This document shows, in pieces, positions 1 to 9,331 of a stretch of 18,569 bases of DNA. Position numbers and translations under genes: made by a program. This DNA is from a virus (lineage: Duplodnaviria > Heunggongvirae > Uroviricota > Caudoviricetes). The first letter of the stretch is position 1; every line of letters starts with the position of its first letter. Below the pieces are notes generated by a model. The model worked only from the letters and a program-made list of their open reading frames with translations, had not been told where the DNA came from and ran no database searches. Location of the stretch: the IMG/VR virus record IMGVR_UViG_2660237930_000004. One strand, written 5' to 3'.

Positions 1-351
1 CACAACATCCGAGGGCAGCATCGTCCGCTGGCCCACAGAAGTCCGGAAAGTCATGGAAGGTCGTTGTTGGGAGGAGGTACAAATTCTCTCATGCAAAAAA
101 TACGTAAAATCGATAATAGCTGGAAATAATTCAATACATGCACTCTCGAAAGTGCATCAGCCAACCGCAGAACGTTATTGCATACAACGTTTCTGCGGCA
201 TAATCCCAATGATTACTCCCTGACAGGGTTCGTAGGCCACTCAATATCAGGTGCAGTTGATGTATCAACACGGTTCAGCAGCATCCGATACTTTTTCCAG
301 GCTTCCAGCAACGGGGTTTCTTCCTCCGTTGCATATACAGCTCACCTTTTT

Positions 352-651
352 TCACCCACGATTAACCAACAGCCAGACCAGCAGACACGCCACCACCGGC
401 ACAGCAAAATCCATCAGGCTTGCCACATCCCATGCACGTGTATCAAAACCGCCCCACCACGGCATATTCATTCGCTTGCCATGCCCGAACATTTCGATCC
501 AGCGATATTCTGCCTGGGTGTGTTCACGCGCAATGAAGAACGTACAACCGGCTATCGCCCCGTAAGCCCAGTTCCCGGTAAAAAGACCAATCAGTAGCTG
601 CGCAGCCACAGCACAAAGCGCATGAAGGAAAGGTGTTATATCCATTTTCAT
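352..651 (-). CDS. Small hypothetical membrane protein (about 97-99 aa, 2-3 predicted hydrophobic helices); possible accessory (moron) gene
   Basis: ORF 352..660 (track start is TTG); in-frame ATGs at 651 and 645, the latter with AGGA about 6 nt upstream. Hydrophobic stretches FLHALCAVAAQLLIGLF and VASLMDFAVPVVACLLVWLLV. The overlapping plus-strand ORF 178..597 has no protein-like features. Start uncertain; family not recognised. Confidence 0.45.
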   Translation of the reverse strand: MKMDITPFLHALCAVAAQLLIGLFTGNWAYGAIAGCTFFIAREHTQAEYRWIEMFGHGKRMNMPWWGGFDTRAWDVASLMDFAVPVVACLLVWLLVNRG

Positions 652-660
652 CCTACCCAA

Positions 661-681
661 TAAAACGGGGCGCTCGGCCCC
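661..681 (-). terminator. Putative intrinsic terminator-like hairpin after the 346-aa gene
   Basis: Minus strand reads GGGGC-CGAGC-GCCCC followed by GTTTTA (5-bp GC stem, short T-rich tail), directly after the stop at 688..690. Confidence 0.35.
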
Positions 682-687
682 TTAATA

Positions 688-1728
688 TTATTTAGACGCA
701 AGCGCCGCCTCAATTGCAGATAATCTTTGTCTTAATTCTGCGTTTTCTTCTTCCAGTGCTGTTATTCTGTCGTCTGACTCTCTGGCTACCTGAACAAGCA
801 AGCCAGTAACACCAGAATAATCTACTGTGTAATAACGTTCACCTTCTTCACCTTCCGATCCGCTCGCACCGTCCTGATATTTCATTGCGGAACCTACAAC
901 TTCTGGGATTGCTTCCAGAGCTTCCTGTGCAATGACACCAGCATAGGGCATACCGTTTTCTTTAAGCGTGTATGTATAGCCGTTCATTTTACGGATGCGG
1001 TCGGTTGCATTATCGATCACCTGAATGTTGTCTTTCAGATCCCGGTCGGAATGCTGGTTAAATGCGGTGGCATGACATGCACCATTAACGCTTAACATAT
1101 AGGTGTTATCGGTATTTTTCTGCGCATAGAACATATAAGCGCCACCATCAACACCGACTTCATAAACAACAGGACGGCTGGAGTTGCCCCACAATTGAGC
1201 AGTAACACCAGCATAAGCGGTTCCCTGTGTGTTTAATGTCATGGTTGACCCATGATTGGCATATTTGATCTGTAATGTGTCGGTGTAATCAAATTTAATA
1301 AGCGCGTTACTTCCACGCTTGCTGTATGACATAAGGCAGTTACCCATTTTGAGGTATCCGCTGTCACCGGGAAAAATCATCGTACCGCCATAAAGGTTGG
1401 TAAAGTCCCAGCAAATGTTTGTCCCGTTATCGTTCAGGTTAAGGCGCGCCATTGCGTTACCTGGACTGTCTATCCATTTTTTGAGGTATAGTTCGCAATA
1501 CGCATCCTCAACACCTGCCGTCCTGTGAGTTGAGCGGAGTTTTCTCCCAAATATAGCTCCGCTAGTTGGCAATACCTGCTGATACCATGAAGCAGACCAG
1601 TCACCAACGATTTCATCTTTGCTGTCTACATATAATTTTGTTGCGTAGCTTCCTTGATCGTTTTTTAATTTGCTAACGTCGGATTTTAGCGTTTTGATGT
1701 CATCAGGAATTACTGTCGATGTAGCCAT
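688..1728 (-). CDS. Tail-fibre/tailspike-like protein (346 aa) with C-terminal intramolecular chaperone (peptidase S74-like) domain
   Basis: GAGGA RBS 5 nt upstream of ATG. C-terminal about 110 aa carries ...NQH-SDRDLKDNI...GYTY... then a heptad-rich coiled coil (RITALEEENAELRQRLSAIEAALASK), matching the Ser/Lys autocleavage signature of phage fibre chaperone domains. The N-terminal about 237 aa looks beta-rich. More AT-rich than the tail backbone. Confidence 0.6.
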   Translation of the reverse strand: MATSTVIPDDIKTLKSDVSKLKNDQGSYATKLYVDSKDEIVGDWSASWYQQVLPTSGAIFGRKLRSTHRTAGVEDAYCELYLKKWIDSPGNAMARLNLNDNGTNICWDFTNLYGGTMIFPGDSGYLKMGNCLMSYSKRGSNALIKFDYTDTLQIKYANHGSTMTLNTQGTAYAGVTAQLWGNSSRPVVYEVGVDGGAYMFYAQKNTDNTYMLSVNGACHATAFNQHSDRDLKDNIQVIDNATDRIRKMNGYTYTLKENGMPYAGVIAQEALEAIPEVVGSAMKYQDGASGSEGEEGERYYTVDYSGVTGLLVQVARESDDRITALEEENAELRQRLSAIEAALASK

Positions 1729-1737
1729 TTTTCTTCC

Positions 1738-2019
1738 TCACATCCAGCCACGAAGTTGATGCTCAACAGCAACCACGTATTCATCGAATAATGACGATAT
1801 TTGCGAATCATTAATGATGCGCACGTTTACAAAATATCCGTCTTCCTTAACACATACCGGTTCGCCATCTTCAGTCAGTTCTCCGGTTTCTTTGTACACG
1901 TTACCTATCACGTCGATAAGAATATCATCCTGCATCGACTCGTCATCATAATAGCCAATACTCTCCATAAAGGCCGAAAAGTCGGCCCTGTCTTCAAATT
2001 TGAGTGTTAAATCTTTCAT
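1738..2019 (-). CDS. Small acidic hypothetical protein (93 aa)
   Basis: ORF start overlaps the stf stop (TAATG, translational coupling); its TGA stop overlaps the RBS of the 346-aa gene. Strongly acidic (D/E-rich). No family recognised. Confidence 0.5.
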   Translation of the reverse strand: MKDLTLKFEDRADFSAFMESIGYYDDESMQDDILIDVIGNVYKETGELTEDGEPVCVKEDGYFVNVRIINDSQISSLFDEYVVAVEHQLRGWM

Positions 2020-4418
2020 TAGATTGACTCCCCCATTTGTGCCTCAGTTAATTCTTTATGCCAAATGCGTAAATTTTTCACATGACCGAACAGGTGTCTG
2101 TTGCCACTGGATGATTGTCCACCGATATTAATATTACCGGCAGTATAACGTTGCAATGTATGCAGAGACGGGGAGCTGCCACCTAAAATTCCATCAACAA
2201 CAACCTGCAACTGTTTATCTTCTGTAAACTTAAAGCCAGTAACAAATTTCCTTTTCTCTCTATTCCCATATGCTTTATATTCTGTTTTTGTTCCTTTGCC
2301 ATTGGTGATAATTAGCCTTTTACCACGAGTGGTAAAACCAAAATACATATAACTTTCATCAGAAACTTCAGTCGTCGCCCCTGTAATTGAGATATTAAGC
2401 AAACGCGCAGAGCCTTCTAAATTAGGCATTTCAGAATCCCAATTAACATTAACTTCCATGAGAACACTAACTGGTGGAGTTGCCCAATTGAAAGGTATAG
2501 GTATGATTACCTGGTCACTTGCTCTCGTGGCACCGACCTCTGTTGTGATGATAAAAGATGACGCGTTTAGTCCCTTTTCGAATTGAGGGGTTGTTAACAT
2601 TAATTTATCGCCAGACTTGATTGATCGTTGATGTGCTCCAAACTCAAAACGCCCATACATATTTTTTGCTTCTGGTGATTTGTAGGTAAACTCAACACGA
2701 ATCCATCCATTAGACTCTCTGAATATGTTATAAGTTGCCGCCTCACCTCCAGAATAACTCAACATATCGCCAGTCTCGCAATCAATATATGCGCCAGCGG
2801 TCAGTGTGTTACTTGAGCCATCGTCGTTAACATATGATATTCTTGGACGCAACGTGATAATACCATCCCCACTTACTTTTTTAACTCTGCAGGATAAAGT
2901 AACTGATTCATTTGCCGAAACTGAAATAACCCTGGTATATCCAGTAGAAATTAATGTCGCCCTTTCAGTTGTGGATGTTTCTTTAACGCCAAACAAACCA
3001 TAACTGAAACCATACTCATCAACTCCCGTGGTAATAGTTAAGTTAGCAGTGTCATAGTTCCACGATACTGGTGTATTCGTATAAGAAAAAGTATTCGTTC
3101 TCTGACCTTCAATGAGCAGACCATCTTTTTCAAAACGTGGTTCATTTATCGCTGATTCAGCAAAACACCCAGACTTATCTATATACGTTGCAGTTGACGC
3201 CCTGGTAAATGAAACAACCTTTTCAGACGGCAATGCAATAACATCGTCACCAACTGTGATGCTCTTATATCCAGGAGCAAACCCGGTAATCATATCCAGT
3301 GAATCGTTAAACGGTATCCACACCTCAGGTAACGGCTGTAAGACATATTTATACGGCTCCGCAGCCTGGCTTGCGTACTCTCTGGCTGCATCTTCGCTTG
3401 CTTTAGCTGCCGTCTGGCTTGCTGCCGATGCTTTCGCTGAGTTCGCAGCCGCTGTTTCGCTCGCCTTTGCGTTGGTTTCACTGGTTTTTGCTGCTTTTTG
3501 ACTGTTAGCTGATGCAGTGGCAGAAGCAGCCGCCGCACTTGCAGAACCAGCTGCAGCACTCTCGCTTTCAGCTGCTGCAGCCTGACTACTTTTCGCCGCA
3601 GTTTCACTGGCTTTGGCATTCGTTTCGCTGGTCTTCGCTGCTGTCTGGCTGGACTTTGCGTTAGTTTCACTCGTCTTCGCAGCTTTCTGGCTGTTAGCCG
3701 CAGCAGTTGCTGATCCGGCTGCTGAAGTCGCAGAACCGGCCGCCGCACTCTCGCTGTCAGCTGCTGCATCCTGACTGCTTTTCGCCGCAGTTTCACTGGC
3801 TCTGGCATTCGTTTCGCTGGTTTTCGCTGCCGTCTGGCTGGACTTCGCGTTGGTTTCGCTCGTCTTTGCGGCTGTCTCACTGTTTTTCGCGTTGGTTTCT
3901 GATTTTTTGGCTGCAGTCGCGGAGTTTGCCGATGCAGTCTGTGAGGCCGCTGCCGCCTGTGCGCTGTTAGCTGCGTTCGTTTCTGAGGTTTTCGCCGCGT
4001 TCTTCGATGATGCCGCTGCTGTTTCGGATTTCTTTGCCGCCGCTGCGCTCTGAGAGGCGGCTTCAGCGTTGCGTGCCGCTTCTTCCACCATTTCCTCAAA
4101 ACGACGCAATGCCTCCGGCATGACATCATCTTCCGTCATGGCACCGAGAAAATCATTCAGCGTCCCCGGCTTAGAATCTTCATACACGGTGATGGTCCCG
4201 GCATGTGAAGGCGGAAAACCTTCAACCAGCAGGATAACGCTGTACTGGCCATACTCAACATCCATGCTGTAACGCCCGGCTTCATCCGGATTTTCAGAGG
4301 CCACCGTGTTCACCAGTACCGTGGTGCTGTTACGCTTTGCCTTCAGTTGAATAGTGCAGTTCTGTATTGGTTTTCCCGCACCATCTTTCAGCACACCTGA
4401 GATTTTTACTGCTGCCAT
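2019..4418 (-). CDS. stf: Side tail fibre protein: lambda Stf-like N-terminus, Ala/Ser/Thr-rich repeat shaft, non-lambda C-terminal domain with LamG/ConA-like lectin signature
   Basis: N-terminus MAAVKISGVLKDGAGKPIQNCTIQLKAKRNSTT... matches lambda Stf from memory. Likely start is ATG at 4416..4418 (GGAG RBS) rather than the GTG at 4424 used by the track. C-terminus ends ...GNRHLFGHVKNLRIWHKELTEAQM, typical of LamG_3/ConA-like jelly-roll domains. Sequence below about 3300 is visibly more AT-rich. Confidence 0.8.
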   Translation of the reverse strand: MAAVKISGVLKDGAGKPIQNCTIQLKAKRNSTTVLVNTVASENPDEAGRYSMDVEYGQYSVILLVEGFPPSHAGTITVYEDSKPGTLNDFLGAMTEDDVMPEALRRFEEMVEEAARNAEAASQSAAAAKKSETAAASSKNAAKTSETNAANSAQAAAASQTASANSATAAKKSETNAKNSETAAKTSETNAKSSQTAAKTSETNARASETAAKSSQDAAADSESAAAGSATSAAGSATAAANSQKAAKTSETNAKSSQTAAKTSETNAKASETAAKSSQAAAAESESAAAGSASAAAASATASANSQKAAKTSETNAKASETAAANSAKASAASQTAAKASEDAAREYASQAAEPYKYVLQPLPEVWIPFNDSLDMITGFAPGYKSITVGDDVIALPSEKVVSFTRASTATYIDKSGCFAESAINEPRFEKDGLLIEGQRTNTFSYTNTPVSWNYDTANLTITTGVDEYGFSYGLFGVKETSTTERATLISTGYTRVISVSANESVTLSCRVKKVSGDGIITLRPRISYVNDDGSSNTLTAGAYIDCETGDMLSYSGGEAATYNIFRESNGWIRVEFTYKSPEAKNMYGRFEFGAHQRSIKSGDKLMLTTPQFEKGLNASSFIITTEVGATRASDQVIIPIPFNWATPPVSVLMEVNVNWDSEMPNLEGSARLLNISITGATTEVSDESYMYFGFTTRGKRLIITNGKGTKTEYKAYGNREKRKFVTGFKFTEDKQLQVVVDGILGGSSPSLHTLQRYTAGNINIGGQSSSGNRHLFGHVKNLRIWHKELTEAQMGESI
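3430..3970 (-). repeat. Tandem repeats of about 189 bp (63 aa) within stf, with nested KTSETNA-type 21-bp sub-repeats
   Basis: Protein segment KAAKTSETNAKSSQTAAKTSETNA[RK]ASETAAKSSQ...SESAAAGSA...NSQ occurs twice in tandem plus partial copies. At DNA level ctgactactt/ttcgccgcag at 3582..3600 recurs at 3771..3790 (offset 189). Boundaries approximate. Confidence 0.7.
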
Positions 4419-4429
4419 ATCCACTCCAC

Positions 4430-5130: not shown

Positions 5131-6044
5131 CGTATTGGGGTTATAAAATTCAGCTGATACTGATGCCTGCAGTGGCTTTCTTCATCACAACAACCAGCAA
5201 ATCGCTGATACTTGCTGTGGGATACCAACCATTTACCCACCATGCTGATACAGAAAACTCCAGTGTCATTACACCACTGCCTGCAGGCATATCAATAACA
5301 CCCGTGTAAATCAGAGTATTATCCAGAGCCGTTCGGTTATAAATTTCAGCCCCGTTTTTCTTCACTATCAGGCGGCATGACGAATAAGTATCGCTATTCT
5401 CCCGCTCATGTCTGGCACCGCAGAAAGCCACCGCTGGAATAACAATTTGCCGGTCAAACGACTGATCGTCATAAACCCTGACGGTAATAGTCCCTGATGG
5501 CCACCGCTCCGGTGCACGGGAGTCCCGGGGGAAAGCTTTGCCCACTGTTTTAACGAGATCGCCTTCAATCTGGTTCGCGGACAGTTTTCCCAGAACCCGA
5601 CAGTTCTCGTTAATCGTGACATTATTGAGCGTCCCGGAGTTCGCATTCACGTTACCGCTGATATCGGCATTTTTCGCCGTCAGCCGCCCGTCCGGTGTCA
5701 GGGAAAATACCGGAGGATTGCCGCCACTGGTAATGGTGGGAGCCGTCAGATACTTCAGGAACACTTCGTTCATGAATATCTGGTTGCCCTGCGCCACAAA
5801 CATCGGCGTTTCATTCCCGTTTGCCGGGTCAATAAACGCGATACGGTTAGCGGCAACCAGGAACTGGCTCAGTTTGCCTTCCTCCGTATCCTCCATACTA
5901 AGGCCAAGCCCCGCGACATAATGCCTGCCGTCTTCGGTCTGCTCAATTTTGACGCCCCACATGGCATTCCATTTATCGTTGGCGTCCTTCCACTCTTTCG
6001 AAAACTCCTCCAGTTTGCTGGCGTTATCCTCCGTCAGCTCGACT

Positions 6045-6121
6045 TTTTCCAGCAGCTCCTTGCCGAGATGGGACTTTTTCGCCAGCAGCTCCTTTTCCAG
6101 CAGCTCCTTGCCGAGATGGGA
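6045..6121. repeat. 29-bp exact direct repeat with 48-bp period inside J (in-frame repeated [10 protein letters not shown] peptide)
   Basis: Positions 6045..6073 and 6093..6121 are identical; protein reads [35 protein letters not shown]. Confidence 0.7.
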
Positions 6122-6245
6122 TTCGGTTATCTGGCCTTTGAAAAAATCCAGGTAACCTTCCGCATCATCGCTCGGCTGACCAACAGCCTCCACGAATGCC
6201 GATTTGCCAACGGTGTTCACACTGCGGATATAAAAGTAATAATCA

Positions 6246-8624
<2,379 letters not shown>

Positions 8625-8681: not shown

Positions 8682-9331
8682 TCAACGACCAATCACCACA
8701 ACCTGACCACCATCTCCTTCATCTGCCGTGCTGATCTCCTGCGAAATCACCCGTGACCCCACGCGCATTTCACCGTACAGAACCGGCAGAACATTGCCCT
8801 GGGCAACCATGTTATCCAGTGAGGAGAAATAGGTGTTCTGTTTGCCGTTATCCGTTGTCTGTGTACGGGGAGTTCTGGCTTTCGGTGCCAGCATCTGCGC
8901 CACACCACCGAGCACCATACTGGCCCCCGCACCATACATTCCTGTAATTGCGGCAGCCCCCAACCAACCTGCAGGGTTCCACCATGCCACCGCAATCAGC
9001 GCCGCCCCCAGCACAGCCGAGAAAAAGCACCGCCACTTTTGGCTCCCGCCAGACGCGGCACAATGTGGATCACGGCACCATTTGCCAGCGGTTCATTAAG
9101 ACGGGCTGATAATTCAGTTTCACCTGCATCACGCCCGGCAATACGTACCTGATACCAGCCGTCGCTCAGTTTCTGACGAAACGCCGGAAGCTGTGTGGTC
9201 AGCGCCCGGACTGCTTCGGCCCCCGTTTTCACACGCAGGTCGATGCGGCGGCCAAATCGTTGTAAATCCCCGTAAAGGCAGATTCGCGCCATGCCCGGTG
9301 ACGCCAGAGGGAGTGTGTGCGTTGCTGCCAT
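8682..9331 (-). pseudogene. I: Tail tip assembly protein I, interrupted by a frameshift (true pseudogene or homopolymer sequencing error)
   Basis: ORF 8996..9331 encodes the I N-terminus (MAATHTLPLASPGMARICLYGD...) and stops at ...SGGAFSRLCWGRR*. ORF 8682..9014 in the -1 frame encodes the I C-terminus (...LGGVAQMLAPKARTPRTQTTDNGKQNTYFSSLDNMVAQGNVLPVLYGEMRVGSRV...VVIGR). Frame switch maps to about 9004..9030, containing an A5 run (plus strand 9022..9026). Confidence 0.8.

Follow-up and report, generated by a model that had tools for sequence, protein, structure and literature searches.

The 346-residue protein encoded on the minus strand at positions 688–1728 of an 18,569-nucleotide Caudoviricetes sequence (IMG/VR record IMGVR_UViG_2660237930_000004, referred to here at its full length as the window) is probably the distal receptor-binding subunit of a two-protein side tail fiber, in which it would be carried as a self-cleaved trimer docked on the side tail fiber protein Stf. 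It is a short allele of a known type of distal lateral-fiber subunit and not a new system, and its family is already catalogued (PHROG 4563; 'tail fiber domain-containing protein' in RefSeq). The features of the window used in this analysis are as follows.

667–681, minus strand: terminator-like GC-rich hairpin followed by a T-run, directly 3′ of the stop codon (consensus scan and sequence; a pattern match only).
688–1728, minus strand: 346-aa ORF, third gene of the fiber cassette, proposed distal S74-capped lateral tail-fiber subunit (ORF list and translation).
691–1050, minus strand: intramolecular chaperone (IMC, Peptidase_S74), residues 227–346, with a long terminal helix (Pfam, profile match, and model).
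1024–1053, minus strand: HSDRDLKDNI, residues 226–235, with the predicted autocleavage site His226^Ser227 and the Ser227/Lys232 pair (alignment to S16 gp37).
1051–1353, minus strand: distal tip module preceding the cleavage site, residues 126–226 (recurrence in fibers, T4 gp34 repeat match, dN/dS of 0.06–0.26).
1354–1617, minus strand: exchangeable β-rich module limited to the short family, residues 38–125 (dN with saturated dS, recurrence).
1618–1704, minus strand: short helical or coiled-coil stalk, residues 9–37 (AF2 helix 9–26 at low confidence; length-variable repeats in alignment A1).
1678–1728, minus strand: N-terminal motif M-[AV]-T-x-T-x-I-P-x-D-I-x-x-L-K, residues 1–17, proposed docking peptide (alignment A1 and IrisVonRoten Gp24).
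1738–2019, minus strand: 93-aa second gene of the cassette (phrog_1361), 9 nt separating its stop codon from the start of the 346-aa gene.
2019–4424, minus strand: Stf, 801-aa side tail fiber that would carry the 346-aa subunit; it comprises phage_tail_N, an Ala/Ser/Thr-rich repeat shaft, and a lectin-like C-terminus.

The ORF runs uninterrupted for 346 codons from an ATG at 1728 to a stop codon at 688–690. A GAGGA Shine–Dalgarno sequence lies 7–11 nt 5′ of the start, sharing nucleotides with the stop codon of the ORF before it. The stand-alone protein described at these positions in an earlier note on this DNA is therefore borne out, and its strand, which that note did not state, is minus. 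Its anticipated place among tail-fiber families is equally clear, with phrog_4563 ('tail fiber protein') matching end to end (E about 1e-220) and all PHROG matches being tail fiber proteins. An NCBIfam search gave no match for the 346-aa, 93-aa, or 102-aa proteins, and the literature on lambdoid side-fiber IMC proteins yielded nothing specific to this family.

Profile matches identify the C-terminus as a true Peptidase_S74/IMC domain, far beyond chance. Pfam PF13884 matches residues 227–278 (E = 4.8e-14) with a score of 52.8 bits against a cut-off of 22 bits. A family profile of 22 members (alignment A1) aligns residues 215–339 to the IMC of Salmonella phage S16 gp37 (PDB entry 6F45, E = 2.5e-8), the alignment reaching the end of that domain; the MYRF domain 7DC3 is also matched, more weakly. 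The AF2 monomer model, computed from the 22-sequence alignment, is poor (mean pLDDT 53, with the IMC region below 50); it predicts a C-terminal helix at residues 305–345. The domain occupies the extreme C-terminus, and its 120 residues fall within the usual length of about 110–150 aa. All three elements on which an S74-like C-terminus had been proposed, HSDRDLKDNI, GYTY (residues 250–253), and the terminal helix, were located, and the assignment stands.

The start of the domain carries the features of a self-cleaving chaperone. Ser227, Asp228, Arg229, Asp230, Leu231, and Lys232 are almost invariant across the 22 members, with the Ser-x4-Lys spacing present as S227-D-R-D-L-K232. HSDRDLKDNI aligns with SSDRRIKKDI of S16 gp37, for which cleavage has been reported as DLNVS^SDRRIKK (PMC7917993). 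Alignment of FNQH^SDRDLKD with this site gives a mature part of 226 residues and a chaperone of 120 residues, correcting the earlier estimate of about 237 aa for the mature part. By analogy with S16 gp37, we infer that the protein undergoes autocleavage between His226 and Ser227; trimerization is likewise to be expected.

The mature part is modular. Members of alignment A1 have a variable number of additional heptad-like repeats inserted at the stalk, and the homolog from phage HMD-P4 gives coiled-coil Pfam matches at noise level. Residues 1–106 recur only in proteins of roughly 330–350 aa. Residues 107–225 (approximately) correspond to a module that immediately precedes the IMC in the C-terminal region of many fiber proteins of 450–1350 aa, and residues 175–225 match the T4 gp34 fiber repeat in a profile search (PDB entries 4UXE and 5NXF, E about 3e-6). 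When compared with Escherichia coli alleles that have the same IMC down to the DNA sequence, residues 38–125 have a dN of about 0.53 with saturated dS; judged from these values, the allele differences in this region are a recombination mosaic. Among E. coli alleles with measurable dS, dN/dS of the gene is mostly 0.06–0.26. On this comparison of alleles the gene is both under purifying selection and mosaic, a pattern that fits a functional, recombining receptor-binding protein and not a decaying remnant. With 226 mature residues the protein is short for one capped by an S74 domain, but it is not unusual: even shorter alleles exist, with full lengths of 221–234 aa against 346 aa here.

The gene comes last in a cassette of three genes that share one orientation and lie downstream of J and lom. 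The first encodes Stf, which is matched by Pfam phage_tail_N (E = 1.6e-68) and, over residues 437–635, by the NCBIfam GTA_spike_fiber domain. Laminin_G_3 matches fall under the Pfam cut-off in the proximal fibers of KarlJaspers and phage 21. The 93-aa product of the second gene occurs in 181 phage records; its AF2 model is confident, and a search of solved and predicted structures with this model gave no informative fold match. The order of fiber, approximately 92-aa protein, and S74 protein is kept, together with the spacing, in Tritos, JenP1, ESCO3, HMD-P4, IrisVonRoten, KarlJaspers, and SLUR29. These hosts of the cassette belong to four unrelated siphovirus groups: lambdoid phages (Tritos), Nonagvirus, Tequintavirus/T5-like phages, and Drexlerviridae (KarlJaspers, SLUR29). 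A scan of IMG/VR with the 93-aa alignment recovered 80 loci, in which the cassette order is present wherever the contig is long enough; all are close E. coli prophage relatives (94–100% identical), and the scan accordingly describes allele variation, not distant diversity.

Comparison of the window with the virulent phage ESCO3 reveals a 1340-nt block of 92% identity that spans approximately the last 70 nt of stf together with the 93-aa gene and codons 1–326 of the 346-aa gene, while stf outside the block is much more diverged. The parts within the block thus travel as a unit. In phage 21, Stf and the 93-aa gene are present, the third gene is absent, and a gene for a small membrane protein comes next. 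The third gene is thus optional and its product dispensable, and the 93-aa protein, which must serve Stf in some way, cannot be an adaptor for the third subunit alone.

The surroundings of the cassette offer some further observations. In the window, the ORF that follows the 346-aa gene encodes a small membrane protein, as also found in phage 21. A 3′ remnant of tfa lies downstream in the near-identical (99.9%) locus of the UPEC132 prophage. Relative to that prophage (otherwise 99.3–99.9% identical), the J and I-like genes of the window have frameshifting insertions. The copy of the 346-aa gene in the window may therefore reside in a defective prophage and never reach an infectious virion; alternatively, the insertions may be assembly errors.

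Elsewhere the gene is widespread. Many E. coli chromosomes carry its DNA with 100% identity, and 771 of 5426 complete E. coli genomes contain a match, which in 512 covers at least 80% of the gene. It is frequent in UPEC and AIEC genomes. A 99.7% identical copy of the protein is encoded by Tritos, a plaque-forming prophage of LF82 with siphovirus morphology in published images (PMC9928086). Full-length relatives are found in the virulent Nonagvirus phages ESCO3 (92%) and JenP1 (68%), and in the T5-like Salmonella phage HMD-P4 (41%).

The 346-aa protein had been described as having no obvious virion-attachment N-terminus. This holds insofar as Pfam and NCBIfam searches detected neither a phage_tail_N nor a T5 Ltf-type domain there, but the description overlooked a strongly conserved motif of 15–17 residues followed by a coiled coil. 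Met1, Thr5, Ile7, Asp10, Thr13, and Lys15 are invariant or nearly so in alignment A1. The motif starts every third-gene allele examined (574, 351, 346, 333, 245, 234, 227, and 221 aa), including short alleles of 221–245 aa in Drexlerviridae and 227–234 aa in E. coli prophages, and is followed in these alleles by a coiled coil with a variable number of repeats. PF13884 is at or above its cut-off in all six alleles scanned (574, 351, 346, 333, 234, and 221 aa). From the N-terminal motif to the IMC, third-gene alleles can be unalignable. The proximal fibers attach differently: in a Pfam scan, phage_tail_N was detected in those of lambdoid phages and Nonagvirus, but not in those of T5-like phages or Drexlerviridae. 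The occurrence of the motif thus follows the cassette, not the type of tail, which favors docking on Stf or the 93-aa protein over docking on the tail. Of the two arrangements originally offered for the protein, a tip docked on Stf and an independent short fiber, the former is favored by the constancy of the cassette, the homology with IrisVonRoten, and the association of the motif with the cassette; by these comparisons, and by analogy with related phages, the protein probably docks on Stf.

In the proposed mechanism, the 120-residue C-terminal chaperone would set three chains in register and, once the trimer has folded, would release itself by cleavage between His226 and Ser227 by means of the Ser227/Lys232 pair. 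A mature trimer of 226-residue chains would remain, with its distal tip freshly exposed. The N-terminal peptide (MATSTVIPDDIKTLK) and the short coiled coil would then dock this trimer at the far end of the 801-aa Stf, whose own attachment to the tail would be through phage_tail_N. The 93-aa protein may assist in this step. The finished fiber would display two binding activities, one provided by the lectin-like C-terminal domain of Stf and the other by the tip of the 346-aa protein. Both would likely recognize variable glycans of the cell surface, for example O-antigen or LPS.

It is tempting to generalize this arrangement, although the following proposal is tentative and we would stop short of favoring it. 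The MxTxTxIPxDIxxLK motif, the approximately 92-aa protein, and the final residues of the lectin-ended proximal fiber may form a universal plug and socket of lambda-, T1-, T5-, and 9g-like siphoviruses, by which minimal self-chaperoning tips (about 105–226 aa when mature) are swapped, also between temperate and virulent phages, and by which lambdoid side fibers gain an optional second specificity. In that case the approximately 92-aa protein would represent a novel type of fiber connector or assembly factor, structurally unlike any known one.

Four other explanations of the protein were weighed against docking on Stf. It is unlikely to be an independent short fiber, whose mature trimer would be attached directly to the tail tip or baseplate (for instance to J) instead of to Stf. 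Such an arrangement would suit a protein with a separate gene and its own ribosome-binding site, weak density near the tail tip of DT57C has been assigned to LtfB (PMC10713586), and the placement on Stf is based on sequence comparison. However, the N-terminal motif is shared by phages with unrelated tail tips (lambda-, T5-, T1-, and 9g-like), it is accompanied by a lectin-ended proximal fiber and an approximately 92-aa gene in all cases examined, and no tail-tip gene lies in the block shared with ESCO3, which does hold the 3′ end of stf as well as the 93-aa gene. It is also quite unlikely that the S74-like domain stays in place, either capping the distal end permanently or offering a platform on which another protein docks. 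The near-invariance of Ser227, Lys232, and the SDRDLK sequence would be expected only if catalysis matters, and S16 gp37, the nearest relative with a solved structure, reportedly undergoes cleavage at the corresponding position. While cleavage in the subfamily of the 346-aa protein is deduced by analogy, and the end of S16 gp37 exposed by cleavage docks gp38, so that fiber ends can be platforms (PMC7917993), no candidate partner gene comes next; the membrane-protein ORF that does is shared with phage 21.

The annotations 'putative lateral tail fiber chaperone' and 'endosialidase chaperone' given to the relatives in KurtStettler, KarlJaspers, HMD-P4, and ESCO3 would suggest a non-structural protein that acts in trans as an assembly chaperone for Stf. 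The Pfam title 'Chaperone of endosialidase' is the most likely origin of these names, and such a function is improbable: Pfam and NCBIfam searches gave no match to any tail-fiber-assembly (Tfa-type) family, residues 107–225 (approximately) are a module of the distal ends of long fiber proteins, ChristophMerian has the whole unit fused in cis to a fiber shaft, and phage 21 assembles an Stf of this type with no protein of the 346-aa kind. Least probable of all, and barely credible, is a non-functional recombination leftover, that is, the 3′ end of a longer fiber gene with a chance start codon. At least 512 E. coli genomes retain the ORF at full length, and so do viable phages, both temperate and virulent. 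Its dN/dS lies well under 1, its N-terminal sequence is conserved, and the gap of 9 nt to the upstream gene does not vary. These features outweigh those that speak for a leftover: the tfa remnant downstream in the UPEC132 locus, the resemblance of residues 107–346 to the ends of long fibers, and the damaged tail genes of the prophage in the window.

If the 346-aa trimer does dock on Stf, the cassette would be a compact and naturally portable host-range module, in which the carrier fiber stays fixed and a tip gene no longer than about 1 kb, needing no separate chaperone, sets an extra specificity. This would help in reading prophage host range from UPEC and AIEC genomes, and would open tip swapping to the engineering of lambda-type or T5-type phages. 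The gene extends, and does not overturn, existing descriptions of T5-like branched and T-shaped fibers. Related genes, already described, occur frequently in E. coli phages; it is an ordinary, if neatly modular, prophage gene.

The closest described system is the 'T-shaped tail fibre complex' of IrisVonRoten (Bas32, Tequintavirus), modelled with AlphaFold-Multimer by Humolli et al. 2025 (PMC11990801). The Gp22-Gp23-Gp24 genes have the same order and spacing as those of the window. Stf is 41% identical to Gp22 over the shaft and the C-terminal lectin/galectin-like domain (E = 3e-124), and the 93-aa protein is 39% identical to Gp23 (E = 7e-26). In contrast, the 346-aa protein and Gp24 are alike only in the first 17 residues, of which 10 of 17 are identical (MATSTVIPDDIKTLKSD here and MVTKTVIPTDITKLKNE in Gp24), and in the IMC. 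Their centers are unalignable, and the distal subunit is 228 aa shorter here (346 aa compared with 574 aa). Attachment to the virion also differs, with a lambda-type phage_tail_N domain in Stf and a T5 Ltf-type N-terminus in the proximal fiber of IrisVonRoten. Gp24 is described as a distal, IMC-capped receptor-binding protein on the proximal fiber, with the galectin-like domain protruding from the proximal C-terminus; its carrier is named inconsistently in the same paper, once as Gp22 and elsewhere as Gp23 (PMC11990801). The published docking model is a prediction made for Gp24, with which the 346-aa protein shares just about 17 N-terminal residues and the IMC.

Two labels suggested by these relatives do not carry over. 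Neither a Gp12-like RBD1 nor a T5-like RBD2 was found in the 346-aa protein, as no match to T4 gp12 or T5 pb1 was obtained in a PDB profile search and with hhalign, both at the level of sequence only, and the description 'T-shaped, dual-RBD' is accordingly not supported. Sequence does not support a 'T5-like tip' either, since the family profile, compared by hhalign with the C-terminal 500 residues of T5 pb1, matched at the cleavage motif alone, and non-significantly.

The branched L-shaped fibers of DT57C and DT571/2 provide a second parallel, as LtfB is likewise a second fiber protein capped by an S74 domain and devoid of a virion-attachment domain. LtfB is carried on LtfA and adds a second specificity, with a genetic precedent in DT57C (Golomidova 2016, PMC4728585; Ayala 2023, PMC10713586). 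By analogy, LtfA-LtfB of DT57C is the best genetic evidence for an architecture in which a second fiber is carried on the first. The two systems differ in that LtfA ends in an IMC and Stf in a lectin-like domain, and the ltf locus has been described as two genes, with no mention of a small gene between them (PMC4728585). The N-terminus of LtfB resembles phiEco32 gp15, which was considered as a source of the docking motif and rejected on comparison of the N-termini; the start of gp15 (MARELMPKSGIMMPHVV) is unrelated to that of the 346-aa protein (MATSTVIPDDIK).

The IMCs of endosialidases, T5 pb1, and S16 gp37 belong to the same domain family (PF13884) and share the C-terminal position and the terminal helix. 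These proteins are, however, long and have their own N-terminal attachment to the virion or to gp36, whereas the mature 346-aa protein has 226 residues. The distal unit is also known in single-chain form. The C-terminal half of gp21 of ChristophMerian (Bas19; 634 aa) aligns to residues 7–339 with 37.5% identity, and the unit is fused there in cis behind phage_tail_N and a repeat shaft. Both this protein and the side tail fiber of mEp460, which are single chains, are without the lectin-like domain, the 92-aa gene, and the MxTxTVIP start. The fusion in ChristophMerian of a homolog of residues 7–339 indicates that the unit forms the end of a fiber in either arrangement, whether continuous with its shaft or encoded by a gene of its own.

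The fibre cassette is poorer in GC (stf, 46.8%; 93-aa gene, 41.5%; 346-aa gene, 44.6%; window 688-4424) than the adjoining, less AT-rich J gene (52–59%; 5150-8621), and has 1340 nt in common with the virulent Nonagvirus phage ESCO3, at 92% identity. The low GC of the cassette fits its acquisition from lower-GC virulent phages.

The region downstream contains the following features, the second placed according to the UPEC132 annotation (L001 is the locus of that near-identical prophage):

Window 352-660, minus strand: 102-aa small membrane protein, phrog_1443, whose phage 21 counterpart is annotated with two TMDs.
Window about 210-335, minus strand (L001 10397-10516): 3′ remnant of tfa (tail fibre assembly).

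The membrane-protein gene lies directly downstream of the cassette and is conserved in lambdoid phages, including phage 21, which keeps it though lacking the 346-aa gene. Probably this gene is a moron, or one related to superinfection, rather than part of the fibre. The UPEC132 annotation places the tfa remnant between this gene and sitD, suggesting that the present cassette replaced an older Stf-Tfa module. The sitABCD operon follows just past the window end, an arrangement also found in phage 21 and LF82 Perceval.

The stf DNA (window 2019-4424) is 99.9% identical to that of UPEC132, gap-free, and forms a single open 801-aa ORF in the window, whereas the RefSeq annotation of UPEC132 (L001 6311-8710) gives a pseudogene and two fragments. 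That call may be due either to one of the few substitutions or to the treatment of the repeat-rich shaft by the annotation pipeline. Comparison with UPEC132 also reveals two genes that are divided in the window:

8996..9331 and 8682..9014, minus strand: gpI-like tail assembly gene, two overlapping ORFs.
6243..8621 and 5150..6220, minus strand: first and second parts of gpJ, one J gene that is intact in UPEC132.

Single-base insertions at 9020 and 9028 cut the gpI-like gene in two, while a 28-nt tandem duplication at 6297-6324 causes the frameshift that breaks J. A second gpJ insertion (about 6045-6121; 48 nt, in-frame) is a partial duplication that repeats the peptide HLGKELLEK. The gpJ insertions point either to a prophage that is defective or to an artefact of assembly.

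Shorter alleles of the third gene, encoding 221–245 aa, occur at four other compared loci:

L058 5292-5996
L073 5215-5898
L089 4270-4947
L090 4292-5029

These share the N-terminal motif of the 346-aa protein and have a divergent S74 domain (SS-x-RYK); their predicted mature part is only about 105–115 residues, largely coiled coil. Common in E. coli prophages and Drexlerviridae, they are among the smallest IMC-capped fibre proteins in this analysis.
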